NCBI GenBank assembly: GCA_963717045.1
Contig: CAVQVD010000015.1
Span: 687,747 to 751,746 of the forward strand
Reading direction: 5' to 3'
Length of the DNA: 64,000 bases
DNA from: an uncultured delta proteobacterium
Lineage (GTDB): Bacteria; Desulfobacterota; Binatia; Binatales; Binataceae
In this document: positions 12,564-40,001 of the stretch, one piece after another
Layout of the letters: every line of letters starts with the position of its first letter
Numbering within the stretch: the first letter of the stretch is position 1
Notes under the pieces: generated by a model
The model's input: only the letters and a program-made list of their open reading frames with translations
The model's database searches: none
Told to the model about the DNA's origin: nothing
Translations under genes and position numbers: made by a program

Positions 12564-12757
12564 TTTTTCGTTTCCGTTTGCGCTTGTGGGACCGCAGTGC
12601 CGACCGATGTGTCCGCCCGGAGCGGCTGAAACAAATCGCCGCCGAGAACCGTTTCTATTTCAGCAGAAGCTGTGAAAAGGTGGTAGGCGTTGCGCCCGAC
12701 TGCGGATGAGCGCGGAGGGCGCGCGGAAAGATCAAGAAGAAGCCGGCAAGGGACGCC

Positions 12758-14982: not shown

Positions 14983-15593
14983 GCTCTATCTCCGCGGGAG
15001 AGGACTGTATGACCATTGATACCTCGCCCCTGGCGGCTTGCCAATGGACTGCCCGCGCCCTGAACTGACAGCGCCACACGGCACACTCCGCCAGACGTCC
15101 CCTTGGACTTGAAGCCACCTCTGACGAGAAAGCGCATCGCGCCCCGGTTGGAGGCCATCACGTCAGCCTCCAGGCGATTGAGCCGCAACTGTTGCGCCAC
15201 CCCGATAAGAGATTCCAGCAAGAGCTTGCCAATGCCTTTCCGTTGATAGGCATCAATGACACTCAGCGCCACCTCGGCCACGGACCTGCATTCTTCCGTC
15301 GCGACGTACCGGCCATCGCTCACGATGTTCTCCGAGTCGTCGTGGTTGGCGGTCGTTACTACCAGAGCCACATGGCGCGGAAAATCCGGCTCCGTAAAAT
15401 AGCGCAGCTCGCGAGAGGTGAAGTCGCGCTTGACGCCAAAGAACCGATGGTAACGAGAGTCGGAACTTAACCCGTACAGGTGACGCGCGAGCCCTTCCTT
15501 GTCATCGGGGCGAATTGCCCGAATGCGTACCGGAGTGCCATCGCGCAAAGTCGCACTCGCGGAGTAATCCGATAGATCGTCGATTGCCCACAT
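14904..15593 (-). CDS. GNAT-family N-acetyltransferase
   Basis: QRKGIGKLLLESLI acetyl-CoA binding motif; paralog of 16057-16641. Confidence 0.6.
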   Translation of the reverse strand: MWAIDDLSDYSASATLRDGTPVRIRAIRPDDKEGLARHLYGLSSDSRYHRFFGVKRDFTSRELRYFTEPDFPRHVALVVTTANHDDSENIVSDGRYVATEECRSVAEVALSVIDAYQRKGIGKLLLESLIGVAQQLRLNRLEADVMASNRGAMRFLVRGGFKSKGTSGGVCRVALSVQGAGSPLASRQGRGINGHTVLSRGDRACRYEPEMTSTFMRLWKAGECRRLLA

Positions 15594-15730
15594 GCTTGCT
15601 CCTCATCATCCTGAATGCCGCTGAAAACTGCTGAGACACCGCTGAGACCCGCTGACACTCTAGCAAACCGCGGTCATTCGAATCCTTCGTCCGTCGCTCA
15701 TAGGCTTCAGTGCGAAACTTTTGGCCATTC

Positions 15731-15755
15731 GCGAAACGCATTGTGTGCGTTGCGC
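15731..15755. promoter_or_regulatory. imperfect 10-bp inverted repeat (GCGAAACGCA-N5-TGCGTTGCGC) in 460-bp intergenic region upstream of GNAT gene; candidate operator
   Basis: Seen directly in sequence; function unknown. Confidence 0.2.
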
Positions 15756-16056
15756 GAACAATGCCAAGACATTGCTGAGTCAAGCAGCATCTATGCCATC
15801 GTTTACCGGCAATCCACGGCCACCAACGCTTTCCTTCAAAGAGCAAGCAGTGCCCATTCGTTGTGCTTGCGCCATTAGCGTGTGCACATGATGTCTACTA
15901 AACGCTACGGGTGCGACTTGAATAGATGTGATATTGAGACGAGGATCGTTGTAGCCTGGGGGTCGAGTAATGAACTCGGCCGCGAGCCCGATAGCTGCGC
16001 AGGCTTGCGCGTTTCAGGCTGGCAGTGTAGTCGCGCGGGTGGGGGGACGCAAAACG

Positions 16057-16641
16057 CTACGCAGTCACTCGATCGCTCAGTCCTTCTAGATCGTGGCTCA
16101 TAATAAGAAGGTCGCGCGGCCGGCCCTGGCGATCGACTACCCAGTCCTGCAGTAGTGCTTCGACAGTGAAACCGATCTTCTCGAACGCGGCTCGCGCACC
16201 CGCCTGATCCGGCGTCATCATCGCGGCCATTTTCTTGAGTCCGCGCGCCTCGCCCAGTCGGAATATCTGCGCGGCAAGTTGCCTGCCGAGGCCCGCACCC
16301 CGGTATGGGACGCCGACCTGAACCCGGATCTCACCTACTCTGCGCGTCCAGCGCGCCTGCTCGAGATGGAGACTCGCGTAACCAGCCAATTTGCCGCCAA
16401 CTTCAGCGAGCACGGTCACGGTCGCGCCCTTTTCAAGATTTGCGATCCATTCGTCAATCAGCGCGGGCTGGGTGATGTCGGTGCGCAGGAATAGCAAATC
16501 ATCGGGCGGGAGCGATTGCGCAAAGGTCAAAAGTTCTTTCTTGTCCGTCGCTTCCATCAGCCGGAGCGATACCCGCCGTCCATCGGAAAGCGCCAACTCT
16601 CTGGCATAGCCAGAACCTTCTCGCGTTTCCTGGTCAACCAT
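16057..16641 (-). CDS. GNAT-family N-acetyltransferase
   Basis: YRGAGLGRQLAAQIF motif; similar N-terminus to neighbouring GNAT. Confidence 0.7.
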   Translation of the reverse strand: MVDQETREGSGYARELALSDGRRVSLRLMEATDKKELLTFAQSLPPDDLLFLRTDITQPALIDEWIANLEKGATVTVLAEVGGKLAGYASLHLEQARWTRRVGEIRVQVGVPYRGAGLGRQLAAQIFRLGEARGLKKMAAMMTPDQAGARAAFEKIGFTVEALLQDWVVDRQGRPRDLLIMSHDLEGLSDRVTA

Positions 16642-24786: not shown

Positions 24787-25070
24787 CAGACCTTTTCCTG
24801 TGGTTGGGCCTGTTGCTTGCCCTGGGTTTTTAGCGCTGGTCTGGAAGTGCGCCTGCAGCCGCTCTCCTTAAAGCTACATTTTGCGCCGACCATGGCGAAA
24901 GTGCATCCTACGTCGGGCATCTTTTCCCACTGGACGGCTGCCTGTTGGGCCTGGAGCCCCAGCTTTCCGAGCGCGGGCGAAAAGGCGGCGGCCGCCATGA
25001 GCGATCAGCCCTAGCCAGCAGTTCTGTTGACGCGGGCGGATGCTTCGCGTTATCGCCTTGGTTGAAACCT

Positions 25071-26375
25071 ATGCACGACGCGACCTCGCGATGGGATCAC
25101 CTGGTGCAGGAGGGGCGAGTGCATCGCTCGCTCTACACCGACGCCTCGATCTTCGCCGAGGAGATGACCCGGATTTTCGGCGGTACCTGGGTTTATCTCG
25201 GCCACGAGAGCGAAATCAGCAAGCCCAACGATTTCGTCACCCGCAATCTCGGCCTGCGGCCGATTATCCTGACCCGCGATGGCAGCGGCAAAATCAACGC
25301 GCTGATGAACCGCTGCTCGCATCGCGCAGCGACGGTGTGCCGCGCGCGTGAGGGTTCGGCGCGCTATTTCACCTGCGGCTATCACGGATGGACCTACAGC
25401 AATAGCGGCGAGTGCGTCTCCGTGCCGGGCGAGGACGCATACGGGCCCGATTTTCGGATCGCCGACTATAACCTCGCAAGGATTGCTCGCGTAGAGATTT
25501 ACCGGGGATTCATTTTCGGCACTCTGAACCGCGAGGCGCCGGCCCTGGTCGAGCACCTGGGCGCGGCGCGCCCGCTGATCGATCAGTGGCTGGATCGCTA
25601 TCCGGGGGCGGAGGTGGTTGTACGCAGCTCCGCTCAACGGATGGTCATGGGCGCTAACTGGAAACTGGTATACGACAATGCGGGCGACGGCTATCATCCG
25701 CCGTTCTCACATCGTTCGTTACTGCTGATGACCGCGCGTCGCCACGGACCCGACCGCGACATGTCGTACTACGGAACGAGCGCGCCCGACGATTGCGCTA
25801 TGTATACGCAGGCGCTCGGCAACGGCCATACTTTTATCGATCAGCGGCCCGAAATGCATGCGGGTTCGGCCTGGGAGCGGCAGCGGCCGCAGCCGGGGCG
25901 GGAGACCTACGAGGCGCAACTTCGCCGGCGCCTCGGCGATGAGGAGGCGAAACGGCTGCTGGAGGTCGCGGTCGGATCGGGGATGAACCTCAACGTCTTT
26001 CCCAACCTGCTCATCATCGGCAACCAGATTCAGGTGGTCGAGCCGCTAGCGGTCGACCGGGTTCAGGTGACATGGTATGCGACCACGCTCGAAGGAGTGC
26101 CGGACGAGATCAACCTGCTGCGAATGCGCACGCAGGAGGATTTCCCCAATTTCGGCGAGGTCGATGACTGCGCGAATTTCGAGGCCTGTCAGCAGGGTAT
26201 GGCGATTCCGGAGCTCGAGTGGATCGATATCAGCCGCCATCTTCGCACCGGCGTCGAGCGGACCGACGCCCAAGGCGTCATCACCGGACCGATAAGCGAC
26301 GATCTCCATTTCCGCGCCTACTACAAAGAGTGGAAGCGGCTGATGAGCGCGGAGCTGAAGCTTACGGTGGGATAG
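25071..26375 (+). CDS. Rieske non-haem iron ring-hydroxylating oxygenase, alpha subunit
   Basis: Rieske CSHRAATVC...CGYHGW; mononuclear Fe block; start chosen at ATG 25071 (MHDATSRWDHLV). Confidence 0.85.
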   Translation: MHDATSRWDHLVQEGRVHRSLYTDASIFAEEMTRIFGGTWVYLGHESEISKPNDFVTRNLGLRPIILTRDGSGKINALMNRCSHRAATVCRAREGSARYFTCGYHGWTYSNSGECVSVPGEDAYGPDFRIADYNLARIARVEIYRGFIFGTLNREAPALVEHLGAARPLIDQWLDRYPGAEVVVRSSAQRMVMGANWKLVYDNAGDGYHPPFSHRSLLLMTARRHGPDRDMSYYGTSAPDDCAMYTQALGNGHTFIDQRPEMHAGSAWERQRPQPGRETYEAQLRRRLGDEEAKRLLEVAVGSGMNLNVFPNLLIIGNQIQVVEPLAVDRVQVTWYATTLEGVPDEINLLRMRTQEDFPNFGEVDDCANFEACQQGMAIPELEWIDISRHLRTGVERTDAQGVITGPISDDLHFRAYYKEWKRLMSAELKLTVG

Positions 26376-26388
26376 GAGACCGGAGTTC

Positions 26389-26970
26389 GTGACCAGGGAC
26401 GACTCGACCGCTGGGGAGCCCTCGCTCTATGTGAATGACGCGCTGTACGAGAGGCTGATGTCGCTTGATCGTCTGTGGAAGCAGCCTGGCGAGCCGCCGG
26501 CGCGGGAGCTCGAGGAGTATTGCGAGCGTCTGATCAAGCGCGAAGCCCGGCTGCTCGACGACGGTGAGTTCGAGCGCTGGCTCGAACTGTTCAGCCGCGA
26601 ATGTATCTATTGGATACCGCTTGGGCGGGGCAACGATCCCCGGCGCGAGGTGACGATCGAGTTTCACGATCGGCGGCGGCTGGTGGATCGGGTCGCGCGG
26701 CTGCGCACCGGGAGCGCCTATTCGCAAATTCCGCCCACCCGCACCTGTCATCTTCTGAGCAATCTGGAGATTTTCCCGAGCGGCGCGGACGAACTCGCGG
26801 CCCGGGCGAATTTTACGATTCACACCTACCGGTGCGGCGTTCGTCGTACGCTGGCTGGCTGGTGCGGGTACCTTTTTGTCAAAGAGGGCGGTGGCTGGAA
26901 GATTGCGCTGAAACAAATCAACCTGATCGACGCCGACGAGGGCCAGGAGAACAACTCCTTTTTCCTGTGA
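26389..26970 (+). CDS. ring-hydroxylating oxygenase beta subunit (NTF2/SnoaL-like)
   Basis: About 190 aa, immediately downstream of alpha subunit, beta-subunit-like pattern. Confidence 0.75.
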   Translation: MTRDDSTAGEPSLYVNDALYERLMSLDRLWKQPGEPPARELEEYCERLIKREARLLDDGEFERWLELFSRECIYWIPLGRGNDPRREVTIEFHDRRRLVDRVARLRTGSAYSQIPPTRTCHLLSNLEIFPSGADELAARANFTIHTYRCGVRRTLAGWCGYLFVKEGGGWKIALKQINLIDADEGQENNSFFL

Positions 26971-27045
26971 CGCCGCGGTCCGTTGCGGCCGCGCCTGCCG
27001 TTCTCCGACGTCGAGCCGGGACGTGCGGCGATAGCGGGGTGACAA

Positions 27046-28527
27046 TTGGCTGGATCGGATGAGAAGCAACCGTCGGGCCTCTCGCGCCCAGAATTCGTCG
27101 AGCGCCATGGCCTTTGGACGCTAGCGCAAAAAGAGCGTGTTCAGGGGGTTCGCGACACGATCGAGCGTCACCGGATAACCTCGGTGCGGGTCGTATTCGC
27201 CGACCAGCACGGAATCGCGCGCGGCAAAACGCTGACTGCGCGAAACTTTCTGGCCGCCCTCGAACGTGGCCACGCCGTGGTAAGCACGCTGTTCGCGTTC
27301 GATACCTCAAATCATGTCGCCTTCCCGGTTTTCACCGGCCAGGGCGGTCTGCCGCTCGCTGGGGCCGGCGGTTCCGGCGACCTTCTGATGGTTCCTGACC
27401 CGGAGACCTTTCGCGTGCTGCCATGGGTTCCCGCCACGGCCTGGGTGTTGTGCGACCTGTACCTGCCGGACGGCGCGCCGGTGCCTATCGCGCCCCGTTA
27501 CATCTATCGGCGGGCGCTCGAAGAGCTGAAGCGCAAGGGCTACGGATCGATGGTGGGTCTCGAAGTCGAGTTCTATGTGATGAAGCTCGAGGACGCCTGT
27601 CTGCGTCCCGAGCAGTCCGGACAGCCGCCGGATCCGCCGCAGGTCAATTTGCTGTCTCACGGCTTCCAGCATCTGGCCGAGCAGAAGATCGACGAGATGC
27701 AGCCGATACTCGAAACCTTGCGCGAAAATCTGGAGGCGCTTGGTCTTCCGATTCGCAGTCTCGAGACCGAATGGGGCCCGAGCCAATGTGAAGTCACTTT
27801 CGAGCCCGAAACGGGGCTACGACCCGCCGATGACATGCTCCTGTTCAGGAGCGCGGTGAAGCAGATCTGTCGGCGCCACGGATACCATGCGACATTCATG
27901 TGCTGGCCGGCGCTGCAGAACGTCTATGCGAGCGGCTGGCATCTGCATCAATCGCTGTACTCGCTGGCGACCGGCGAAAACGCGTTTGTGGCGCCCGACT
28001 CCTCGCAACTGCTATCGGCTACCGGCCGCGATTTCGTCGGTGGACTGCTGCATCATGCGGCAGCAAGTTGCGTCTTCAGTAACCCGACGATCAACGGCTA
28101 CAAGCGGCTGCGTCCCAACTCTCTCGCGCCACATCGGGCCAACTGGGCCACGGAGAATCGAGGCGCGATGATTCGCGTAATCGGCAGTCCGACGGACCCT
28201 GGCACGCATCTTGAGAACAGGATTGGAGAACCTGCCGCCAATCCATACCTGTACCTGGCGGCAAACCTGATCGCGGGTATGGATGGGGTCGAGAAGCGGA
28301 TCGATCCGGGCCCTCCGACCAGCGATCCCTATGCCGACGCCGACCGCGCGGTACTGCCGCGGTCGCTGATGGATGCGGTGGGCGCGCTCAAACATAGTGC
28401 GCTGTTTCGGGAGAAGATGGGCAACGATTTCATCGACTACCTGGTAGCGCTGAAGGAATTCGAGATTTCGCGTTTCCTTTCGTTCGTTACCGACTGGGAG
28501 CACCGCGAGTACTTCGAGATGTTTTGA
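27046..28527 (+). CDS. glutamine synthetase-like gamma-glutamyl-amine ligase family protein (GmaS/PuuA/AtdA1/IpuC-type)
   Basis: GS catalytic domain blocks (GLEVEFYV, EYGPSQCE, NGYKRLRP); paralog of 57883-59322. Confidence 0.8.
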   Translation: MAGSDEKQPSGLSRPEFVERHGLWTLAQKERVQGVRDTIERHRITSVRVVFADQHGIARGKTLTARNFLAALERGHAVVSTLFAFDTSNHVAFPVFTGQGGLPLAGAGGSGDLLMVPDPETFRVLPWVPATAWVLCDLYLPDGAPVPIAPRYIYRRALEELKRKGYGSMVGLEVEFYVMKLEDACLRPEQSGQPPDPPQVNLLSHGFQHLAEQKIDEMQPILETLRENLEALGLPIRSLETEWGPSQCEVTFEPETGLRPADDMLLFRSAVKQICRRHGYHATFMCWPALQNVYASGWHLHQSLYSLATGENAFVAPDSSQLLSATGRDFVGGLLHHAAASCVFSNPTINGYKRLRPNSLAPHRANWATENRGAMIRVIGSPTDPGTHLENRIGEPAANPYLYLAANLIAGMDGVEKRIDPGPPTSDPYADADRAVLPRSLMDAVGALKHSALFREKMGNDFIDYLVALKEFEISRFLSFVTDWEHREYFEMF

Positions 28528-28679: not shown

Positions 28680-30314
28680 ATGGGCGAGCGTGGAGCACCG
28701 GTCTCACTAGCAGTCGCATCTATCGCGATTTCGTTCTTGAGCGTGATTTCATTTTTAAGTTTGACGGGCGTGGCGGAAGCGCAGCAGAAGAACAACAACA
28801 CGCTGCTGGTATGCACGGCGTGTCATATACCCAAGGACGGCAAGCTGGATTCGATCGAATCGGTGCGGATGACACCCGAGGGCTGGCGGATGACGCTCAG
28901 CCGAATGATTCGCAATCACGGTCTGCAGCTCAAAGAGGACGAGGCTCACAATATTCTCAAGTACCTCAGCGACAATTACGGTTTGGCGCCCTCCGAGATC
29001 GCTCCGTACGAATATGCGCTTGAACAGCGCAACAGCACCTTGCAGGACTTCGATCGGGCGGGTTTGCCGCCCAACGTGATGGGCGCTTGCGTGCAGTGTC
29101 ATTCGTTCGCGCGGATCGCCCTGCAGCGGCGGACGCCGGAGATGTGGAAGCGGCTGCCCGACCTGCATGAGTACTTCGTGCCGTTCGTGGCTTCCGACAC
29201 GTCCTCGGCGGGCAATCTTATCGACCCGTGGCGCAAGGTGGCGACCGGAGAGGCGGTGCCATACTTAGCCAAGCGCTTCCCGTTCGAGGCGCCTGCGTGG
29301 AAGGAATGGCAGGCGGCAGCGAGGCCGGATTATTCGGGGAAATGGATGGTGGTGGGGCACGACCCGGCCAAGGGCGGCGACTATACCGGAGTGCTCACGG
29401 TGACCTCGTCGGGTGACGATCAGTATCGCGGCAAGTTCACCCATGAGTTCGAGGATGGCTCCTCGGTGACGGGCAGCACGGAGGCGGTGCTGTACGCGAA
29501 GTTCGAGTGGCGCGGGCGGGCCAAGGTGGGGGACCGGCAGGAAGCAGAGATTTTCTTCGGGAACGAGAACGGCACCCGGATGCACGGGCGGCGCCTGCTG
29601 ACGCCGGTGGGCGATCTTGGGATGGACGAGACCCTGTACAAGGCTGGGAGCGCAGCCACGCTGCTGACCGCCATCCCCAAGTCGATCCAAGCCGGACAGA
29701 CGGTCAAGGTGCGGCTGTTCGGGATGCATCTGCCCGCCAGCGTGAGCGCGGACGCGATTAGCTTTGGCGATGGCCTAAGGGTGAAATCGGTCAGCCAGTC
29801 CGATGACAACACGGTGGTCGCCGAGGTGGAGGCCGACGCCAACGCCAAGCCAGGACCGCGCAGTGCGAAGATCGCAGGAGTCGAGGGCGAGCAGCCGATT
29901 TACCTGTACAAAACCGTGGATTACATCAGCATTACGCCCGAACGGGGCTATGGGCGGCCGGGCGGGACGCGTGGCCCCAAGGTCAACCAGCAATTCGAGG
30001 CGAGCGCGTTCACCCATGGGCCGGATGGCAAGCCGGTCAACATCGGGCGGGTCGGCCCGCTGACCTGGGACGTGGCGGAGCGGGTGAGCAGAATCGGCGA
30101 CGACGACGTGCTGTACGTCGGGAAGGTCAATCCATACGGAACATTTATTGCCGCCTCCGACGGACCTAACCCGGAGCGCGAGCATAGCGAATCCAACGTG
30201 GGCGACGTGTGGGTCGAAGCATGGTACAAGCCCGACCCGTCGAAGCCGCCGATGGGCGCGCGGGCCTTCATGCTGTTGATGCCGCCGAAGTTCGTGTTCA
30301 ATCCAATAAATTGA
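28680..30314 (+). CDS. qhpA: quinohemoprotein amine dehydrogenase alpha subunit (dihaem cytochrome c)
   Basis: Signal peptide, two CxxCH haem motifs (CTACH, CVQCH) in N-terminal domain, about 540 aa. Confidence 0.8.
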   Translation: MGERGAPVSLAVASIAISFLSVISFLSLTGVAEAQQKNNNTLLVCTACHIPKDGKLDSIESVRMTPEGWRMTLSRMIRNHGLQLKEDEAHNILKYLSDNYGLAPSEIAPYEYALEQRNSTLQDFDRAGLPPNVMGACVQCHSFARIALQRRTPEMWKRLPDLHEYFVPFVASDTSSAGNLIDPWRKVATGEAVPYLAKRFPFEAPAWKEWQAAARPDYSGKWMVVGHDPAKGGDYTGVLTVTSSGDDQYRGKFTHEFEDGSSVTGSTEAVLYAKFEWRGRAKVGDRQEAEIFFGNENGTRMHGRRLLTPVGDLGMDETLYKAGSAATLLTAIPKSIQAGQTVKVRLFGMHLPASVSADAISFGDGLRVKSVSQSDDNTVVAEVEADANAKPGPRSAKIAGVEGEQPIYLYKTVDYISITPERGYGRPGGTRGPKVNQQFEASAFTHGPDGKPVNIGRVGPLTWDVAERVSRIGDDDVLYVGKVNPYGTFIAASDGPNPEREHSESNVGDVWVEAWYKPDPSKPPMGARAFMLLMPPKFVFNPIN

Positions 30315-30330: not shown

Positions 30331-31821
30331 GTGCAACCTGTGCTACCTGACGAACTGGAATTCCGGCCCGAGAACGCTCATGTGGTCAATCACAGCGGAA
30401 TGACCGTGCTGGTGGCCGCGAAGACCATGTCGTTGTTCACGATGGATCCGCTGTCGGAAGCTGTGCTGCAGTACTGCGAGAGCAAGCGGCGGTTCACGCT
30501 GGAAGATGTCGTCAAGCAACTCGCACAACCCGCTGGCGAGTTCGTCGGCGAAGACGTGGCGCACGTGGTGCGGGAATTCATGAACGTGGACGTGCTGATG
30601 GGTGGACAGAACAGCGCCCCAACCGCGCTCCCGTTCGTGGACACGGAAAAGTTTCCGCTAAGTTCCCTGGTGCTCAACGTCACCAATAAGTGCAACCTGC
30701 ACTGCACCTACTGCTACGAGCCGGACGGAGCCAAGTACGGCCCGGCGCCAGTGCGGATGGAATGGGAGACGGCGCGCTCGAGCGTGGACTTTCTGTTCGA
30801 GAAGGCGGGGCGAAACCGCGAGGTCAATATCGTTTTCTTCGGCGGCGAGGCGCTGCTCAATTTCAAGCTGATGAAGCAGGTGGTCGATTACGCCGAAAAT
30901 AAGAGCGTGGCGGTGGGCAAGAAGGTAGACTTTTCGATCACCACCAACGGGACGCTGCTGGTTGACGAGATAATCGACTTTCTGCAGGAGCATCGCTTCG
31001 GCGTGACGATCAGTATCGACGGGCCCAAGGAGATTCATGACCGCCGCCGCTTCTTTCTCAGCCACGCCGGCGAGAAGAAAGGCTCGTACGACCAGATCAT
31101 GAGCCGCGTCGAACGCTTGCTCGAGCGCTACACGGCGCGCCCGATCGTGGCCCGGGTCACAGTGACCAAGGGCGCGGTCGAAATCGTTCGGATTTACGAA
31201 CACCTGAGCGGCCTGGGATTCTTCGAGGTCGGGTTCTCGCCGGTGACCGCGAAGCCGGGACTTGATTACGGCCTCGAAGCGGCCGACCTGCGCGAGGTGC
31301 TGGCCGGGTTCAAGGAACTCGGCGGGCGCTACGTGGAGCGGGCGATCGGCGGTCAGTACACAGGCTTCTCGAACCTGAGCACGATGCTGACCGACCTGCA
31401 TCTTGGGACCAACAAGATGTTCCCGTGCGGCGCGGGCCTGGGGCTTCTCGACGTCGACGGCAACGGCGACGTATACCTGTGTCATCGGTTCCCCGGGGTC
31501 GAGGAACATAAGTACGGCAATGTGAAGCAAGGTGGAATCGAATACGGACGTCTAACCGAATTCGTCAACAGCGTGCAGGTGGGCAACAAGCCAGTGTGCC
31601 AGACCTGCTGGATTCGCGGAATCTGCGGGGGTGGATGTTATCACGAGGCACTGCAGGAGTTCGGTGAAGCGGCGCTGCCCAATTTGCACTATTGCGTATT
31701 TCTGCGCGAGTGGACTGAGTATGGGATCGGGGTGTTTACCGAACTCGAGCAGAAGAACCCGGGCTTTGTCGAAAAATATATCGTGCGAAGCCGTGGAGAT
31801 GTGCCCAAGGAACTGAGTTGA
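30331..31821 (+). CDS. qhpD: radical SAM/SPASM maturase for QHNDH gamma subunit
   Basis: CNLHCTYCY radical-SAM motif plus C-terminal SPASM Cys cluster (CQTCWIRGICGGGCYHE). Confidence 0.85.
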   Translation: MQPVLPDELEFRPENAHVVNHSGMTVLVAAKTMSLFTMDPLSEAVLQYCESKRRFTLEDVVKQLAQPAGEFVGEDVAHVVREFMNVDVLMGGQNSAPTALPFVDTEKFPLSSLVLNVTNKCNLHCTYCYEPDGAKYGPAPVRMEWETARSSVDFLFEKAGRNREVNIVFFGGEALLNFKLMKQVVDYAENKSVAVGKKVDFSITTNGTLLVDEIIDFLQEHRFGVTISIDGPKEIHDRRRFFLSHAGEKKGSYDQIMSRVERLLERYTARPIVARVTVTKGAVEIVRIYEHLSGLGFFEVGFSPVTAKPGLDYGLEAADLREVLAGFKELGGRYVERAIGGQYTGFSNLSTMLTDLHLGTNKMFPCGAGLGLLDVDGNGDVYLCHRFPGVEEHKYGNVKQGGIEYGRLTEFVNSVQVGNKPVCQTCWIRGICGGGCYHEALQEFGEAALPNLHYCVFLREWTEYGIGVFTELEQKNPGFVEKYIVRSRGDVPKELS

Positions 31822-31892: not shown

Positions 31893-32210
31893 ATGAAACA
31901 CTTGAAGGCGGCGAACAAGAAGGCCCGTGCGGTTGAAGCAATTCGCACGGGGGGAGACGTGGTCGGGATGGTGCAGCCGATGGGCTGTACCACGATTTTC
32001 AATCCCGGCTGGGAAGCCGACCCTTGGGGTGGCGCGCATGCGATGTGCAGTCCCACGGAAGCCGATCTGGCGGGATGCTCGGGCGTGTGCTGGTGGCCGG
32101 CACAAGTGCCGGACAGCCTGCAGAACTATCCTGAATGGGCAAAGGGCTGCTCCGGTGTGAACATGGAAGACTGGAGAAGCCTGAACGTGGAGTTCCCCAA
32201 AGTTAAGTAG
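31893..32210 (+). CDS. qhpC: quinohemoprotein amine dehydrogenase gamma subunit (CTQ and thioether-crosslinked peptide) with leader
   Basis: Numbering from Met25, Cys7/Glu16, Cys27/Asp33, Cys37/Trp43 and Cys41/Asp49 fall exactly at published QhpC crosslink/CTQ positions; CSGVCWWPAQV. Confidence 0.8.
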   Translation: MKHLKAANKKARAVEAIRTGGDVVGMVQPMGCTTIFNPGWEADPWGGAHAMCSPTEADLAGCSGVCWWPAQVPDSLQNYPEWAKGCSGVNMEDWRSLNVEFPKVK

Positions 32211-32365: not shown

Positions 32366-33517
32366 ATGACCAACAAGAATGGTTGGCAGCTACGTCTGTA
32401 CGGTTCGTGGATTTTTGGACTCGCGCTGATGATGTGGGCGGGCACTGCGTCGGCCAAATGGTACATGGTCGTGGGGACGCTGCCCAACCTCATTCAGGTC
32501 GTCGACACCACGACTGACAAAGTTGTCAGGACTATTCCGTTGGAGGGTCCCGGGCCGATTCTGCAGGTCTCGACCGATTCTGCGACGCCGCGGTATGCCT
32601 ACGCGACGACCAACCTGGACCAAGCCGTCGCCGTAGTTGACCTGGAACAGGGTAAGCAGGTCGCGACCTACAAGCTGTCGAGCGATACCGAGACCGTACG
32701 GGTTTCGGCTACCAACCTTAATCCCAAGGGCGACAGGTTGTACATAAGCGAGCTGCCGCTCAAGGTGACCCCGGGCCGCTATCAGCACGAAGAGCAGCGC
32801 TTCGTGGTTTACGACACTGCGACCAACAAGGAAGTAAAGTCCTTTCCGGCGCCGGCGCAGACCCTATCGTTCGCATTCTCGCCTGATGGCAAACGGCTCT
32901 ACGCTTTCTGCGTTGGGCAGGACGTGATGGTGCTCGACGCGAACGACGGCCACGTGCTGGGCACGATTCCGCTCGCCCATCGCAATATCACGGGCATCCG
33001 CGCAACGTATGGGCTGCCCCTCCTGGCGAATTACCAGGAGCAGAATTACCTGATCACTTTCGCGATTATCGTCGAGGATTCAATAACCGATACCGACACG
33101 CTGGCGGTTGGCCTGCTCGACCTCAAGCAGCAGCAGCCGGCGCTGCAGATTATCGAGACCGAACCCTTCGTCGAGAACTGGTATTCGGTCGAAGGCATCG
33201 CCACCCCGCCCAACCTGCACAAGGCGTATTTCGTATGGAACGATCTCTGGAAAATCGATTACCAGACCAAGAAGCGGGAAAAAGCAGTCTCTCTTCCCAA
33301 TAGCCAAGCGGTGCCGCTGCTCTCGCCCGACGGCAAGAAGGTGTATTGCGGCGGCCAGTGGCATGCTCTCTTTGTTTACGATGCCAACACGCTCAATCAC
33401 ATCGACGACGTCGAACTCGGCCATTCGATGGCCGGGATCGGGATGCGGTTCGTGCAGAACGATAAAGATCTGGCGGCACCCGGATCCACCAGCCAGGATC
33501 CGCAAAGCTCACAATAG
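32366..33517 (+). CDS. qhpB: quinohemoprotein amine dehydrogenase beta subunit (seven-bladed beta-propeller)
   Basis: Signal peptide, 383 aa, YVTN-like propeller repeats, position in qhp operon. Confidence 0.7.
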   Translation: MTNKNGWQLRLYGSWIFGLALMMWAGTASAKWYMVVGTLPNLIQVVDTTTDKVVRTIPLEGPGPILQVSTDSATPRYAYATTNLDQAVAVVDLEQGKQVATYKLSSDTETVRVSATNLNPKGDRLYISELPLKVTPGRYQHEEQRFVVYDTATNKEVKSFPAPAQTLSFAFSPDGKRLYAFCVGQDVMVLDANDGHVLGTIPLAHRNITGIRATYGLPLLANYQEQNYLITFAIIVEDSITDTDTLAVGLLDLKQQQPALQIIETEPFVENWYSVEGIATPPNLHKAYFVWNDLWKIDYQTKKREKAVSLPNSQAVPLLSPDGKKVYCGGQWHALFVYDANTLNHIDDVELGHSMAGIGMRFVQNDKDLAAPGSTSQDPQSSQ

Positions 33518-33571: not shown

Positions 33572-34357
33572 GTGAGGAAGCCAACCGGCCGCCGTCTCCG
33601 TATCGCGGCCACGTCGCCGGAATTCGATCCCGAATCATTAGGCGCGCGCACGGGCGCGGGCGTTCGCGTCGCGCTCATCGATAGCGGGATCAACTCCGCC
33701 CATTCACACGTTGGTCCGCTCGCTGGCGGAGTAGCTTTTAGCGCCGGCTCTAACAGCAAGGTGCTGCAGAGCTCTGATTTTAACGACACTCTGGGACACG
33801 GTACCGCGCTGGCCGGAATTCTGAAATTCAAAGCGCCCGAGGCGACATTGTTCGCCGTGAAGGTTTTCACAGACCGCCTGGTGACGTCGATCGAAATTCT
33901 CGAAGCGGCACTCGGCTGGGCGATAGAGCAGAAGATGCACGTGATCAATCTGAGTCTAGGGACCGACAACCCCGCGCATCGTGCGCGGATGGCAAAGATA
34001 GCGGCGAGGGCCAAGCGCGCCGGAACGTTGATCGCCGCCTCGTCTCCACCCGGACGGTCAGACATGCTTCCCGCGGCCCTCGACGGCGTCTTCGGTGTGG
34101 CAGCGAGTGACGATTGTTCGTGGAGCGAGTACCGATACGTCCCGGACGACCCGATTCATTTCAGGGCTCACCCGTCGCCGCGCCCGTTGCCCGGCCTGGA
34201 CCAGTCGCGCAACTATCGCGGGCACAGCTTTGCCTCGGCGCATCTGAGCGCTTTGCTGGCGCTGCTGATTGAGGATCGCCCGGAGTTGGGATTCGCGAAC
34301 GCTCGCGAGCGCTTGTTGAAATGTACCGGACTGCCGCTGCCGTTGAAGAATCCTTGA
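33572..34357 (+). CDS. qhpE: subtilisin-like S8 serine peptidase (QhpC leader peptidase)
   Basis: Catalytic triad blocks ALIDSGI, HGTALAGI, GHSFASAH; GTG start. Confidence 0.8.
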   Translation: MRKPTGRRLRIAATSPEFDPESLGARTGAGVRVALIDSGINSAHSHVGPLAGGVAFSAGSNSKVLQSSDFNDTLGHGTALAGILKFKAPEATLFAVKVFTDRLVTSIEILEAALGWAIEQKMHVINLSLGTDNPAHRARMAKIAARAKRAGTLIAASSPPGRSDMLPAALDGVFGVAASDDCSWSEYRYVPDDPIHFRAHPSPRPLPGLDQSRNYRGHSFASAHLSALLALLIEDRPELGFANARERLLKCTGLPLPLKNP

Positions 34358-34399: not shown

Positions 34400-36140
34400 C
34401 TAGGCAACGCGCTCCTGCGCCCGCATTTTCTGCGACACGCCGTCGGGGTGGTCGCCGTAGCTGCCGCTCCACAACACGCGGCCGTTGTCGAGCACCATCA
34501 CGTGATCGTCCTGCCGGATCGAGGACAGCCGATGCGTGATCATTATCACCGTGCGGCCGGGCAGCGCTCGTTCAACAGCGGCCCGGATTTCAGCTTCGCT
34601 GACCACGTCCAGCGCCGAAAGGGCTTCATCAAGGACCAGGATTTTAGGACCCTTGAGTAGCGCACGAGCGATAGAGATGCGCTGCCGTTGGCCGTCGGAG
34701 AGCGTCGCTCCATGCTCGCCGACCGGGTTATCGTAGCCATCGGGCAACGAGCTAATGAAATCGTGGAGTCCGACCGCGCGCGCGGCGGCGATCACCTGCT
34801 CCCGCGAGGCGTCCGGACAGGCATAGCGGAGGTTTTCGATCATCGGCGCGTGAAACACGAAGGCCTGATGTCCGGTCACTACCAGTTGGTTTCTGAGCCA
34901 TGCCAGATCGAGAGTGCGGAGCTCGTGGCCGTCGAGCAGGATCGAGCCGGCCGCCGGGTTCGATCAACCGGGCCATCAGGTCGACGATCGAGGTCTTACC
35001 GGCGCCGCTTGGGCCAACAATTGTGAATCTCCCGCCTGCGGGAATTTTGAAATTCAGGTCGTCGAGAATCGGTACGGCTGGATCATGGCTGAAGGTGACC
35101 CGCCGAAATTCGATCTCTCCGTGAACCTCGGGCAGCCGGAGGGTTCCTGGCGCGCTTTCGTTTTCGGTTGGCAGGTCAAGGAATTCGAAGATACGGTCCA
35201 CGGAGACGCCCGCGCGCTGCAGCCGCAGGTAGAGATCGATCAGCGCCTGTAATGGACTGAACGCGCGCATCTGATAGGCCGAGAATGCCACCAGACTGCC
35301 GATCGTCATGTGCCCTTCGATTACCAAGTATCCGCCGTAAAGCGTCACCAGTGCGGAACCGAGAAATGTGCTGGCGGCAGAAGCGCTGCTGCCCAGATAC
35401 GCGAGCATCTCGAGCCGCGTGACTGAGTTGACGAATGCGACGCCCAGGGCGGAAAGCCGGGCGTGCTGGACTTTTTCGGCTACAAAAAGCTTTACAAATT
35501 TTATTGCCGACAGTGACTCTACCAAAAATGACGAAATTGCCGCGTTGAGTTCGCGGACGGCGCGAGTCTGATTCACGATCAACGGTCGAAACCGCATCAC
35601 TCCGTACAGTTGCAACGGCACCAGCGCCAAGCTGAGTAAAAACAGCTTCCAGTTCAACCACAGGAGAAAACCGGTCGCGGCGAACAGCGTGAAAATGTTT
35701 GCGATAAAATTGAAGCCAGCGTCGGTCAGCATCGCTTGCACTTCAGCGATGTCGGTATTGAGACGCGAAAGAAGGTCGCCGACTTTTGCCCGCACGTGAA
35801 AACGCATCGGCAGCGCTTGCAGATGCTCGAACAGATGCTGGCGTAGATTGAACAGCACCCGCGCCGTTACACTGGTGTAGTAGTAGCGATTGAACGCGCC
35901 GAGCACATAGCTCGCGACGGTAACGGCGATCATTACGCCGGTGAGAATCCAGAGCAGGCGTAGATTGCGGGCCTGAAGGACATCGTCAATCAGAATCTTG
36001 GTGAAAATAGGCCAGAGCAGGCCCAAAATCGTATTCGAGAACGACAACAGAAAAATGATGGCGAGCTTGGAACGAAATCCCGAAAGAAACGGCAGCAGTC
36101 GGCGAACGCGCGAAAGGCTGACTTTGCTGAGCGGCCTCAT
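34400..36140 (-). CDS. qhpF: ABC exporter, fused permease-ATPase (QhpF-like); frame broken by 1-nt indel near 34940-34960 (fragments 34930-36140 and 34400-34879)
   Basis: Six-TM domain then Walker A GPSGAGKTS in one frame; LSDGQRQR signature, Walker B ILVLDEA and H-loop continue in adjacent frame; start chosen at ATG 36140 with GGAG RBS. Confidence 0.7.
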
Positions 36141-36383
36141 TAAGCTCCATTTTTCTCGAGCTATGAGGCGCATTAGTCCATAACCCGAGCCCCGGCGTAA
36201 TCCGACGCCGCATTCGTTCCTGACCATTCGATCATCATCCGAAGCGGCTATCGACTTTCGCGTGCGCAATGATAGTAATCCGCTCGGCAGGAAAGCAAGA
36301 TAAGAGAGAATCAGTAGAAGATCGACTCAAATCAGTAAAGGACTGACCTAGATCGGTAAGGGACTGCTGTCGAATCGAAGCAA

Positions 36384-37121
36384 ATGGAAAGAACCACCGA
36401 TATCGCCAATCCGAAGGACGGCTCCCAACTGATGCTGATTCCCGAGGGTGAATTCCTGATGGGCAGCGATGATGGCTATCCCAGCGAGCGCCCCGCCCAT
36501 CGCGTCTTCGTGAGCCCGTTTTATATCGCCAGAACCCTTGTCACCAACTCCCAATACCGAAGCTTTGTGCTGGAGACCGGATACGCGGCGCCTTACATGG
36601 ATGATCCCCGGGCCGAGTGGGCGAATTGGGATCGGGACAGCAAAAACTTTCCCGCCGGCCGTGAAACGCACCCGGTGGTGCTCGCCTCGTGGATTGATGC
36701 TTCGGCTTACTGCGAATGGGCAGGGACCAGACTGGCTACCGAGGCCGAGTGGGAAAAGGCGGCTCGCGGAGGCTTGGACGGCAAGCTGTTTCCGTGGGGC
36801 GATGAGGAAATCTCCCACGAGCTAGCCAACTACGACAATCAGGACGGTACCACTCCGGTGGGCGTTTATCCGCCAAATGGCTATGGTCTTTACGACATGG
36901 TGGGTAATGCGTGGGAATGGGTGGCCGACTACTATGACCCCAAATACTATTCGCGGTCGCCCATGCGCGATCCCCGCGGACCGGAGCAAGGCTCATCGCG
37001 GGTGCTGCGCGGTGGTTCGTGGCTGCTGTTTGCCCGTTACTGCCGAGTTTCGTACCGATTCAGGAATAGTCCAAACTTCCACGCTAGCTTGATTGGCTTT
37101 CGTGTGGCTCGGTCGCTATGA
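36384..37121 (+). CDS. formylglycine-generating enzyme (FGE/SUMF1) family protein
   Basis: LMLIPEGEFLMGSDD, YCEWAG, MVGNAWEWVADYY, RVLRGGSW blocks typical of FGE domain. Confidence 0.8.
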   Translation: MERTTDIANPKDGSQLMLIPEGEFLMGSDDGYPSERPAHRVFVSPFYIARTLVTNSQYRSFVLETGYAAPYMDDPRAEWANWDRDSKNFPAGRETHPVVLASWIDASAYCEWAGTRLATEAEWEKAARGGLDGKLFPWGDEEISHELANYDNQDGTTPVGVYPPNGYGLYDMVGNAWEWVADYYDPKYYSRSPMRDPRGPEQGSSRVLRGGSWLLFARYCRVSYRFRNSPNFHASLIGFRVARSL

Positions 37122-38556
37122 GAGCGCCTTCTCGGTAGAGCCGGACCAGGGCCGCACGCACCATGCCGGAATCCGCGCGGGTTCCCTCGCGTCGCTTCAG
37201 ATAGCCCGCCACGATATCGGTTATCGCGGGCTTCTTTTTGATCTCCTTGAGCAGAGCCGGTACGCATACGTTGTGAAGGAATCGAAGACCCCGCGTGTTA
37301 CTGTCGCTCACGAAAACCTCACGGGTTTTCACGCGCGGCCATTCGAGCACTGGGCGCCGCTCGATCCTGACGTCCGAGGCGAGGCGTACGTGCGAAACCT
37401 CGGTAGGTGGCTTGAGCGTCGCTCCGTTGGCCGGCGCGCGCGAGAGCGAAGCCAGCAGGCCGCTGCGCTTCTGCCAGAAAACGGAATCCGGCCATCGCCG
37501 TTCCTGGTCGTAGTATTCGGCGGATTGGCGATAGTGCGTCGAGTAAGCATTGCTCTGTGCGTCGCGATAGAAGCTAAGAGCGCTTGCGGATGACGCCGGG
37601 CTGCTCAGGCTAGTGTTTATCACCGCGGCCCCGGTGATTGCCGACGCCATCGCTGTCTGCACGCCCTCTGAAGAGAGCGGATCGATGAATAGTCCGGCGT
37701 CGCCCAAAAGCAGAAAGCGCTCGCCGGCGAACTGACGAGCGGTATACAAGGTCGCGTCCGAAACCCGGAGCGGGTGCGGTAGGCTGGCGGTCGCAAGAAA
37801 TTTCGAGACGTATGAAAGCCTGTCTATTTCGGACAGATAGAAAGCCCCGAGTCCGAGTTCCCGAATGCGCCGGCCCTCGCTCCAATCGACCAGCAGAGTG
37901 ACGTTGCGCAGCCCGTTCTGCAGCGGGACCGACCATACCACGCCGTTCTCATACGCTTCGAGTAGAGTGTTGCCGAAATCATCGCCCGCGGGCGCCGCGG
38001 CGTCGCGCCAGTAGCCGGTTACCGCAAGCGTTTGGAAGTCCGGGTCGCGTTGGCGAAAATCCTGACGCGCGAGAATTCCGGCATGACCGCTTGCATCGAC
38101 AAAAAATCGCCCCCTGATCGGGGCCTCGCGCGCGGTATGCACCGTCACGCCACGCCTATCGATGCGGACGCCATTGACGCCCGCGCCGAGCCTGACCTCC
38201 ACTTTTTTCTGGCGACGCGCATTCTCCAGCAACAGCATATCGAAGGTCTCGCGCCAGACCTGGAAGCCCATTCTGGATTTGTCTGCGCTGTAGTAACCGG
38301 TGCGCGGCTCGGGAGTGCCCCAGCACACGGTGTGGCCGGCCATTCGGAGGAACCCGCCGCTCTCCACCGTTTGGCGCAACCTGAGAAAATCCAGGACCGA
38401 AAGGATGCTGGGGGTCAGCGATTCACCGATTCGGTAGCGGGGAAATTTGCTTTTGTCCAGCAGCAGGACCCGAAAGCCGAGCCCAGCCAGCAGATAGCCG
38501 GCGGTGCTGCCAGCCGGACCTGCGCCGGCGATTACAACGTCGGGGTTTGTGGCCAC
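37084..38556 (-). CDS. qhpG: FAD-dependent monooxygenase of tryptophan-halogenase-like fold (QhpG-like)
   Basis: VVIAGAGPAGSTAGYLLA GxGxxG motif, about 490 aa, adjacent to qhp genes. Confidence 0.7.
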   Translation of the reverse strand: MATNPDVVIAGAGPAGSTAGYLLAGLGFRVLLLDKSKFPRYRIGESLTPSILSVLDFLRLRQTVESGGFLRMAGHTVCWGTPEPRTGYYSADKSRMGFQVWRETFDMLLLENARRQKKVEVRLGAGVNGVRIDRRGVTVHTAREAPIRGRFFVDASGHAGILARQDFRQRDPDFQTLAVTGYWRDAAAPAGDDFGNTLLEAYENGVVWSVPLQNGLRNVTLLVDWSEGRRIRELGLGAFYLSEIDRLSYVSKFLATASLPHPLRVSDATLYTARQFAGERFLLLGDAGLFIDPLSSEGVQTAMASAITGAAVINTSLSSPASSASALSFYRDAQSNAYSTHYRQSAEYYDQERRWPDSVFWQKRSGLLASLSRAPANGATLKPPTEVSHVRLASDVRIERRPVLEWPRVKTREVFVSDSNTRGLRFLHNVCVPALLKEIKKKPAITDIVAGYLKRREGTRADSGMVRAALVRLYREGALIATEPHESQSS

Positions 38557-38654
38557 TCGGCGATCTTATGCATTCATGAATGGGCGCCGCAAAGGGCTTG
38601 GCGCGCTTACGATCCGCGGCCGCGAACGCGTCCACGTGGATCGCGTTCAACCGC

Positions 38655-40001
38655 TCACTGTACGATTTTCATCAACCCCTCGGGGCTCGCATATTGGCTC
38701 GCATCGAGGTACTGCGGCTGGCAGTCCCCATTGTAGCAGGAGGTTTGAGTCAGGCTTATCGAGACGTGCCTGTCGACAAAATTTATCGACCATCCGGCCT
38801 GCGGGCCATTTGTGCCCAACACCGAGCCCCCACTAGGCACACCAAGGGGGGTCCAGAATTGCGTGATAAATTTGAAAAGGCCGCCCCGCGGGTCGTAAAG
38901 CTCGATCGCCAGCGGCAAGAACGTTTCCTTGTCGATATACAGAACCCTGCGGCCATAACAGTAACCTTGGCTGTGCGCCGGGAGACGGGACATCTCGATC
39001 ACGTAGACATTTCTAAGTTCCCACTTGCCAAGGCTCGGCCTTCCCCAAGGCAGAATTCCCTTGGCCGCGGGGTAGTAGTAGTCGCCTGGCAGTTGAGTGG
39101 ACGTTCCGCACTGCCTGAGAGCGGCCGGCTCGCCATGCACCAGCGCGAGTATCCGCTTTTCGCCCAGGTACTTGATCTCGAACTGCTGCGGAAGACCTGG
39201 AGGTCCCAGCGCCGCATCTTCCCACGTGAAGTCGGAATTTTGCAGGGGCGCACAACGGGCCGCATCCGAGGAACGGATCGGCCGCCGGGAACTCGGGAGA
39301 TAGGTGTAGATGTCGTCGAGCTTGGTGATGTCGTCGTAGGTGAGATCGAGCGAAGTGGTATATTTTCCCTGTTCCGGAGCAATCTGCTGGATGTACTTGG
39401 CAAAGAAGTAGTTGCCCTCGGTCCGGATCGTGGAGGGCATCGCCGGATCGCTTATATGAGTCAGCTGGGAGTATACAACGTCCTCCTGCCCGCTGGCGGT
39501 GAAGTTACCGTAGGAATCGCCTGAGTAGCTGCAGAAGATGGAACGCTGAACGCGCGGATTGTAATGGTAGTATAGGTCGTAAAATATTGCGTATGGCGCA
39601 AGCGCTGACTGGCTAAGTGGATTGGGAAAAGGAATACCAGTGGTATATCCCTCTGGAATGTAGCCGCCATCGGGGAGTTTCCTGAGTGTCGCGTGGCCGG
39701 CGTTCTTTTCGGTAGCGGCCAGGTAACTCGGCGGAAGTGGCATCGGCAGAGTGGGCCCCACTTCCAGTTGAACGTCGGACGGCAGTTTCCAGAAGTATCC
39801 GCCGGCAAAGAGCGCCTGCATGGCGGGTGGCATGAACTGCTTGTAACGCTCCCAGTTAGCGTGGGTGATTTGAGTACCGGGTGGCAGCGTGGCGTCAGAG
39901 CGTGCGGCCTCAGCGGAGTATAATTCGCAACGCAGAGTGAACAGCAGCAGAACGGCGATAGACCCAATGATCGCCGCGTGCGAACGCCTGCCTGGTTTCA
40001 T
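38655..40001 (-). CDS. secreted hypothetical protein (DUF1329-like)
   Basis: Signal peptide; Tyr/Pro-rich 448-aa protein; family call is tentative. Confidence 0.45.
   Translation of the reverse strand: MKPGRRSHAAIIGSIAVLLLFTLRCELYSAEAARSDATLPPGTQITHANWERYKQFMPPAMQALFAGGYFWKLPSDVQLEVGPTLPMPLPPSYLAATEKNAGHATLRKLPDGGYIPEGYTTGIPFPNPLSQSALAPYAIFYDLYYHYNPRVQRSIFCSYSGDSYGNFTASGQEDVVYSQLTHISDPAMPSTIRTEGNYFFAKYIQQIAPEQGKYTTSLDLTYDDITKLDDIYTYLPSSRRPIRSSDAARCAPLQNSDFTWEDAALGPPGLPQQFEIKYLGEKRILALVHGEPAALRQCGTSTQLPGDYYYPAAKGILPWGRPSLGKWELRNVYVIEMSRLPAHSQGYCYGRRVLYIDKETFLPLAIELYDPRGGLFKFITQFWTPLGVPSGGSVLGTNGPQAGWSINFVDRHVSISLTQTSCYNGDCQPQYLDASQYASPEGLMKIVQ

Follow-up and report, generated by a model that had tools for sequence, protein, structure and literature searches.

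A non-canonical FGE-fold protein encoded beside qhpG in the quinohemoprotein amine dehydrogenase clusters of Binatia

Aerobic formylglycine-generating enzymes (FGEs; SUMF1 and the enzymes of S. coelicolor, T. curvata and M. tuberculosis) carry in their PF03781 fold a Cu(I)-binding pair of active-site cysteines (C272/C277 in S. coelicolor, C336/C341 in human) and an active-site serine (S269 in S. coelicolor, S260 in M. tuberculosis). The two cysteines are the copper ligands (bioRxiv 10.1101/2021.05.21.445229); bacterial FGEs need both of them, and mutants in which serine replaces them make no formylglycine (PMC2459300). The fold itself has been widely co-opted, with non-FGE members of PF03781 keeping the scaffold without the copper site. 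For quinohemoprotein amine dehydrogenase (QHNDH), the genes described as necessary for expression in Paracoccus and Pseudomonas are qhpABCDEFGR, among which QhpG dihydroxylates the tryptophan of the cysteine tryptophylquinone (CTQ) cofactor (PMC7876137). Here we analyze a 64-kb stretch of DNA from an uncultured delta proteobacterium of the Binatia (contig CAVQVD010000015.1; hereafter the window), which holds a complete qhp locus with a gene for an FGE-like protein (36384-37121, plus strand) positioned inside it. The gene is genuine, and its product, judged by the residues at its active site, is an FGE-fold protein that is non-canonical as an FGE. Its orthologous group forms a subfamily of FGE-fold proteins that is uncharacterised and non-canonical and whose place beside qhpG is conserved within one lineage, and the reading towards which we lean is that of a repurposed FGE-fold protein that stands outside core CTQ biogenesis and has been kept beside qhpG by descent.

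The FGE-like open reading frame (ORF) starts with ATG and encodes 245 amino acids with one FGE-sulfatase domain, the PF03781 match (E=5.3e-66, 223 bits) running from residue 15 to 243 and taking in positions 4-255 of the 255 in the profile. No second FGE-domain ORF occurs in the window, and the coordinates of this one agree with an earlier note on this DNA, which had placed an FGE/SUMF1-family gene between the exporter (qhpF-like) gene and qhpG and had rightly set it outside the described qhpABCDEFGR genes (PMC7876137). Comparison with eight orthologues gave ratios of non-synonymous to synonymous substitution (dN/dS) of 0.07-0.23, so that we are dealing with a real gene under purifying selection. 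The AlphaFold2 model is a confident FGE fold, with a mean predicted local distance difference test score (pLDDT) of 90.9 and a predicted template modelling score (pTM) of 0.90. Read directly, the N-terminus (MERTTDIANPKDGSQLMLIPEGEF) has no hydrophobic segment, and the protein is predicted to be cytoplasmic. Its orthologous group is narrow and has its centre in Binatia; where members have a named source, the label is Binatia, Binataceae or 'Deltaproteobacteria' metagenome-assembled genome (MAG).

Among solved structures, the best sequence matches of the FGE-like protein are true FGEs (36-38% identity; S. coelicolor 6muj, E=1e-48), and Foldseek comparison with solved FGEs gave query-normalised template modelling scores (TMq) of 0.80-0.84 at 35-38% identity, those for the S. 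coelicolor, T. curvata and human enzymes being 0.81-0.84. With these enzymes the window protein has in common the PF03781 domain, the fold, the position of the second cysteine and also the serine; it differs from them in its first copper-ligand position, in loop deletions and in the lack of a nearby sulfatase. Alignment of its 'GGSWLLFARYC' with 'GGSYLCHDSYC' of the S. coelicolor FGE places Ser212 on Ser269, Leu215 on Cys272 and Cys220 on Cys277. Relative to true FGEs, ~17 residues are deleted in the loop past the conserved A-N motif and a further 3 past the second cysteine. In 118 full-length relatives of 50-99% identity, the Cys272 position is leucine in 110 and cysteine in none, the Cys277 position is cysteine in 110, and the Ser269 position is alanine in 94, which puts the serine outside FGE-type constraint. 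Of the intact catalytic pair that the earlier note had proposed to look for, only the second position is thus a cysteine. The copper-dependent oxidative modification of cysteine that the same note had named for FGE domains is unlikely here, because the equivalent of Cys272 is a leucine and both cysteines are required (PMC2459300).

The cysteine that is left need not be a catalytic remnant. C110 and C220 are both conserved in the group, and human FGE has a structural disulfide, C235-C346, in which C235 corresponds to C110. In the nearest outgroup the cysteine is shifted to position 222, which matches the partner of the C235 equivalent, while C110 is retained; since the outgroup cysteine sits there, the alignment suggests that C220 pairs with C110. 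A search for ORFs of at least 250 amino acids with a sulfatase-type C/S-x-P-x-R motif drew a blank both in the window and in the Binatia loci retrieved. None of the NCBIfam equivalog models GldK, SenA, EgtB, PvdO and OvoA came near its cut-off on the FGE-like protein.

Other FGE-fold proteins offer partial parallels. PvdO (PDB 5HHA) comes close to the FGE-like protein in length and, like it, consists of one compact FGE-fold domain that lacks the cysteine pair of FGEs; it gave the best mutual structural coverage (TMq 0.84; target-normalised score, TMt, 0.79) and, in the maturation of the pyoverdine chromophore, has been connected with the oxidation of a dihydroxy-aromatic moiety on a molecule of peptide origin. 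The two are only 30% identical, however, with the PvdO model NF051459 scoring 110.6 bits against a cut-off of 500, and PvdO is a periplasmic protein of pvd clusters, whereas the FGE-like protein has no signal peptide by direct reading and is encoded beside qhpG. SUMF2/pFGE, Tsi3 and PorK/GldK also use an FGE fold without catalytic cysteines, for binding or as a scaffold, but in the endoplasmic reticulum, in the periplasm or as an outer-membrane lipoprotein, and in other gene contexts; the GldK model gives 121 bits (cut-off 350), which does not amount to orthology at the sequence level. In EgtB, OvoA and SenA an FGE-like domain takes part in oxidative C-S chemistry on a thiol substrate. These models score ~121 bits on the FGE-like protein (EgtB 120.7 against a cut-off of 360), but the enzymes depend on a DinB domain at the N-terminus that holds a 3-His iron site, and the window protein is a lone FGE domain.

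Two arrangements of the qhp genes occur in Binatia. In the window-type architecture (window and loci L001, L002, L003, L009 and L010), qhpADCBE run forward, the exporter gene in reverse, the FGE-like gene forward and qhpG in reverse; in the second type (L006, L013, L016, L026, L089 and L090), small ORFs and the FGE-like gene run forward, followed by qhpG in reverse, the exporter gene forward, qhpE in reverse and qhpADCB forward. Synonymous sites between the two are saturated, which marks a deep divergence, and in both the FGE-like gene and qhpG lie tail to tail. Their 3' ends overlap by exactly 38 bp in the window, L003, L006, L089 and L090, by 50 bp in L001 and by 62 bp in L002. The junction is opened in L007, where two histidine-kinase genes (3.5 kb) separate the pair, and on the P0044 contig, where ~8.5 kb of other genes do so. 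At L019 and L022 there is no FGE-like gene at the locus, with qhpG, exporter, qhpE and qhpADCB intact, and no qhp gene lies within 10 kb of one orthologue (P0031, 66% identity). The earlier note had named as a refutation a canonical FGE, with sulfatase genes elsewhere, that is not conserved near qhp loci; what we found differs from this, being a non-canonical protein whose position is kept in Binatia.

In none of the surveyed loci is the FGE-like gene co-directional or co-transcribed with a qhp gene; beside qhpG it is always convergent. In the window it is divergent from the exporter gene, across a gap of 243 bp (36141-36383), and convergent with qhpG, with a 3'-end overlap of 38 bp (37084-37121), so that no transcript is shared with a qhp gene. 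The description of the gene as embedded in the cluster therefore holds for its position and fails for its transcription. Compared with the qhpABCDEFGR genes, it is physically inside the cluster and its product is predicted to be cytoplasmic like QhpD, QhpE and QhpG, but it accompanies qhp in Binatia only and is transcribed separately. In type-2 loci the ORF whose stop overlaps the FGE-like start is a small secreted or membrane one that lies upstream, and no qhp gene takes that position. Such small ORFs, upstream of the FGE-like gene or against qhpG (L006:9058-10004, L007:9515-9970, L019:1553-2584, L022:1502-2574, L089:9361-9822 and L090:8989-10004), form two families, 'a' of ~150 amino acids with an N-terminal membrane anchor and 'b' of ~140-190 amino acids with a signal-peptide-like N-terminus. 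Both are present at L019 and L022, where 'b' stands directly against qhpG. The families are unrelated to each other, have no Pfam match and are absent from the window, and we rejected these ORFs as true operon partners.

To place the gene in a wider frame, we surveyed 80 QhpC-centred loci (±10 kb) from species-representative genomes, searching six-frame ORFs with a hidden Markov model (HMM) built from 120 homologues and with the qhp proteins of the window. The window QhpC is 95-97% identical to that of Candidatus Binataceae and 'uncultured delta proteobacterium' MAGs and 65-72% identical to that of many Candidatus Binatia. FGE-domain ORFs were present in 6 of the 80 loci, five of them of Binatia type (L009, L010, L013, L016 and L026) and one from Blastocatellia (L065). 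None was found in the proteobacterial-type loci of the survey, which include Paracoccus, Pseudomonas, Azospirillum, Marinobacterium, Amphritea and Hydrogenophaga. Surveying qhp loci for such genes, as the earlier note had advised, thus returned a gene that recurs near qhpG in Binatia and no counterpart in proteobacterial-type loci. The L065 protein has 388 amino acids, a membrane anchor and an intact 'GGSFLCSDRFC'; the start of its gene overlaps the qhpE stop, and an arylsulfatase with CSPSR follows directly (FGE-sulfatase stretch L065:16277-19519, plus strand). In L078, a relative of L065, the sulfatase is present (14698-16422, plus strand) and the FGE absent. We regard the L065 genes as an ordinary FGE-sulfatase pair that happens to adjoin qhpE and rejected this locus as a second, independent lineage for an FGE-qhp link, as its FGE is canonical in its cysteine pair and its sulfatase.

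Beyond the orthologous group, the nearest relatives (~52% identity, one cluster of them named Latescibacterota) are encoded by stand-alone genes whose surroundings are unrelated. A metagenome pattern scan served solely as a negative control, the matches listed being distant FGE-domain proteins; among these, none of 80 loci (35-51% identity) carried a qhp gene. The superfamily is very large, with 206,907 cluster representatives (clustering at 50% identity) at E<=1e-3, and most of the distant members sampled likewise lack the cysteine pair. In the searchable literature we found no paper describing qhp in Binatia and no QHNDH paper that ties FGE-like genes or Binatia/Binatota to the enzyme.

On balance, then, we think that the FGE-like protein is a repurposed FGE-fold protein outside core QHNDH biogenesis, because its gene is never co-directional with a qhp gene and is not found in some Binatia clusters that are otherwise intact or in any other lineage of the survey. 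Such a protein would make no formylglycine, its bis-Cys Cu(I) site being incomplete, the serine unconserved in the group and no sulfatase encoded nearby; most likely it would act as a ligand- or peptide-binding module without Cu/O2 chemistry. In this it would be akin to PvdO, SUMF2, Tsi3 and PorK, which have lost the copper site as well. Its place between the exporter gene and qhpG would go back to an ancestral tail-to-tail junction with qhpG in Binatia, and the overlapping 3' ends, which make this junction hard to break, would give a neutral reason for its persistence. The gene would be at most a lineage-specific accessory and would add no general new maturation step.

A number of observations weigh against a protein outside cofactor biogenesis. 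Of 16 Binatia contexts, 12 have the FGE-like gene convergent on qhpG and adjoining it, and 14 have the two within 10 kb of each other. When all window ORFs were compared with the type-2 loci, the genes in common were qhpA/D/C/B/E, the exporter gene and qhpG together with the FGE-like gene, which makes the latter the sole non-qhp gene common to both rearranged architectures. The predicted cytoplasmic site of the protein matches the maturation steps of QhpC, QhpD, QhpG and QhpE (PMC7876137). Around the former active site, the loop W-L-L-F-x-x-[FY]-C-R is strongly conserved, a pattern that suggests a working rather than a decayed site. QhpC itself carries a C-x-P-x-E motif that resembles the C-x-P-x-R motif of FGE substrates and sulfatases with the charge reversed. 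Finally, binding is a function that we infer for the protein by default.

These points feed the strongest alternative, to which we give a smaller though still substantial chance, namely that the protein assists QHNDH maturation as an accessory factor peculiar to Binatia, which would make its gene a ninth member of the qhp set. By binding the QhpCDG complex or the Cys-rich QhpC, it would aid a step that has no assigned catalyst, without the copper chemistry of FGEs; candidate steps are the conversion of 6,7-dihydroxy-Trp to the quinone, the Cys37-Trp43 thioether and the protection of free thiols, and possible analogues are PvdO acting on dihydropyoverdine and the FGE-like domain of EgtB/OvoA binding its thiol substrate. 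Besides the adjacency that outlasted the rearrangement, the conserved residues near the former active site and the strength of purifying selection, this alternative draws on the fold similarity to PvdO, on the divergent promoter region common to the FGE-like and exporter genes in the window clade, and on the final oxidation of CTQ and the electron donor of QhpG, both stated as open questions (PMC7876137). Against it stand the strand and operon relations of the gene, its absence at L019 and L022 and at non-Binatia loci, even those with a five-cysteine QhpC (Acidobacteria L027; Blastocatellia L032, L048 and L078), and the P0031 orthologue unlinked to qhp. Moreover, the protein has neither the DinB domain nor the His triad of EgtB, the score of the PvdO model is far below its cut-off, and PvdO itself is periplasmic, with an activity never shown in vitro. 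More doubtful still is a specific form of the idea, drawn by analogy, in which a copper-independent ninth qhp factor would work with QhpG in the Binatia cytoplasm, for example by binding the QhpC C-x-P-x-E motif or 6,7-dihydroxy-Trp, and promote formation of the quinone and/or the Cys37-Trp43 thioether. The earlier note had raised an additional or alternative modification step on QhpC; such a step, if it exists, would be confined to one lineage and would need chemistry other than that of FGEs.

QhpC was considered as a possible target in two respects. The window protein has five cysteines, the four cross-link cysteines and C86 (32148-32150). The fifth occurs in the context E/D-W-x3-C, with E-D-W 6-7 residues further on (L003-L027, L032, L048, L065 and L078); it is absent from 57 of 57 proteobacterial-type QhpC sequences and present in those of Binatia type and of Acidobacteria, and could form a fourth thioether or be a free thiol. 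All loci with an FGE-domain gene have a five-cysteine QhpC, and no four-cysteine QhpC is accompanied by one. L019, L022, L027, L032, L048 and L078 combine a five-cysteine QhpC with the absence of an FGE-like gene from the locus, and C86 was rejected as a target of the FGE-like protein, the five-cysteine pattern following phylogeny and occurring without the gene. The second candidate was the C52-x-P-x-E56 motif (C-S-P-T-E, 32046-32060), which is nearly invariant across all QhpC lineages and whose C52 is the cysteine cross-linked to Asp33. We rejected it as an FGE recognition site, as it is conserved also in lineages without the FGE-like gene. Being conserved with or without that gene, and with its cysteine engaged in the cross-link to Asp33, the motif is uninformative on the FGE-like gene, and its likeness to C-x-P-x-R is probably a coincidence.

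An effect at the RNA level, in which convergent transcription through the overlap would allow either gene of the pair to modulate the other through its expression, whatever the protein does, seems to us very improbable. The identical 38-bp overlap in five loci despite saturated synonymous divergence speaks for it, but the overlap is longer in L001 and L002, the two genes are apart in L007 and on the P0044 contig, and purifying selection at the protein level indicates that the product itself matters; a promoter and terminator scan of 36100-38800 found no terminator or structural signal at the overlap (37084-37121). A canonical aerobic FGE, converting cysteine to formylglycine in sulfatases encoded elsewhere or in QhpC, is the least credible of the readings, for although its best sequence and structure matches are true FGEs, source annotations call it one and the window protein has both Ser212 and Cys220, a Cys-to-Ser mutant at the position now held by leucine is inactive (PMC2459300), the loop past the A-N motif is shortened, no sulfatase motif occurs in the window or the fetched Binatia loci, and the one true FGE near qhp, that of L065, differs in its membrane anchor, cysteine pair and adjacent sulfatase.

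The rest of the qhp cluster is laid out around the gene as follows. On the plus strand lie qhpA for the di-haem alpha subunit (28680-30314; TIGR03908 391 bits, cut-off 274; four Pfam QHNDH alpha domains), qhpD for the radical S-adenosylmethionine (SAM)/SPASM maturase (30331-31821; TIGR03906 537 bits, cut-off 453), qhpC for the gamma subunit precursor (31893-32210; NF037958 125.8 bits, cut-off 50), qhpB for the beta subunit (32366-33517; TIGR03907 E=1.3e-47, 162.5 bits, cut-off 223.2) and qhpE for the subtilisin-like protease (33572-34357; NF049966 E=1.1e-45, 155.6 bits, below the cut-off of 165; PF00082). On the minus strand, qhpG encodes the flavin adenine dinucleotide (FAD)-dependent monooxygenase (37084-38556; NF049967 QhpG 250.9 bits, cut-off 240). 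The NCBIfam equivalog cut-offs are thus passed by qhpA, qhpD, qhpC and qhpG, with qhpB and qhpE falling just under theirs.

The ATP-binding cassette (ABC) exporter gene (qhpF-like; 34400-36140, minus strand) is interrupted, its PF00664 and PF00005 domains being split over two minus-strand ORFs (34752-36269 and 34400-34879) with a frameshift between them. A tblastn search with the intact 578-amino-acid protein of L009 put the true start at 36140 and traced the shift, from frame -3 to -1 relative to L009, to a 1-base insertion at ~34951-34957, an extra G in GGCG[G]CCGGCTCG. The gene is either a pseudogene or affected by an assembly error; contig L003, which is related to the window, has many ORF splits of the same kind. 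The intergenic region between the exporter and FGE-like starts has a G+C content of 0.53-0.56, lower than its surroundings, and the scan of 36100-38800 found no match to the sigma-70 consensus.

Several further features of Binatia qhp loci came to light. Directly upstream of qhpA (24945-28527, plus strand), the window has ORFs resembling the alpha and small beta subunits of a Rieske-type oxygenase, followed by a glutamine-synthetase-like gene; their L003 counterparts match Ring_hydroxyl_B and Gln-synt_C, and the block is kept in L003, L009 and L010. Its conservation suggests a linked pathway for an amine or a gamma-glutamyl amide. In L012 (6666-11273; Candidatus Binataceae, QhpC 95% identical), qhpA-D-C are followed directly by qhpE, and no qhpB, exporter, FGE-like gene or qhpG lies within 10 kb, so that this is either a split cluster or a misassembled region. 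Second qhpA-qhpC-qhpB sets without their own qhpD/E/F/G were seen in several Binatia genomes (L016:13631-17723, L018:8831-12922 and L026:14298-18369; also L014, L015 and L017), a few kb downstream of a complete cluster or on separate contigs, which suggests paralogous dehydrogenases using one maturation machinery.

The survey also brought out a pattern that concerns qhpG itself. Eight complete qhp clusters contain two adjacent ORFs of the peptidase U32 family (L029, L032, L039 from Sedimenticola selenatireducens, L040, L049, L053, L065 and L066 from Magnetospirillaceae), and all eight lack qhpG. At L065 the pair spans 11662-13612 on the plus strand; the second U32 ORF matches PF01136 (E=3e-33), with UbiU and TrhP matches under their cut-offs. 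Among complete clusters, 37 have qhpG without the U32 pair, 8 the pair without qhpG, none both and 4 neither. U32 proteins of the UbiU/UbiV type are oxygen-independent hydroxylases. By analogy, the distribution suggests that the U32 pair could be an oxygen-independent, UbiU/UbiV-like substitute for the QhpG flavin monooxygenase in CTQ biogenesis. No paper linking U32 proteins to QHNDH was found in the searchable literature. The mutual exclusion points to a way of making the tryptophylquinone cofactor that does not depend on oxygen and may matter more than the FGE-like gene.

For the FGE family, the public annotation of this group as 'formylglycine-generating enzyme required for sulfatase activity' is probably wrong, because the copper-binding cysteine pair is incomplete. 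For Binatia, the qhp cluster carries a conserved extra neighbour. Should that neighbour turn out to be a true QhpC maturation factor, it would represent new chemistry for the FGE fold and would bear on what makes the quinone and the Cys-Trp bond in CTQ biogenesis (PMC7876137).

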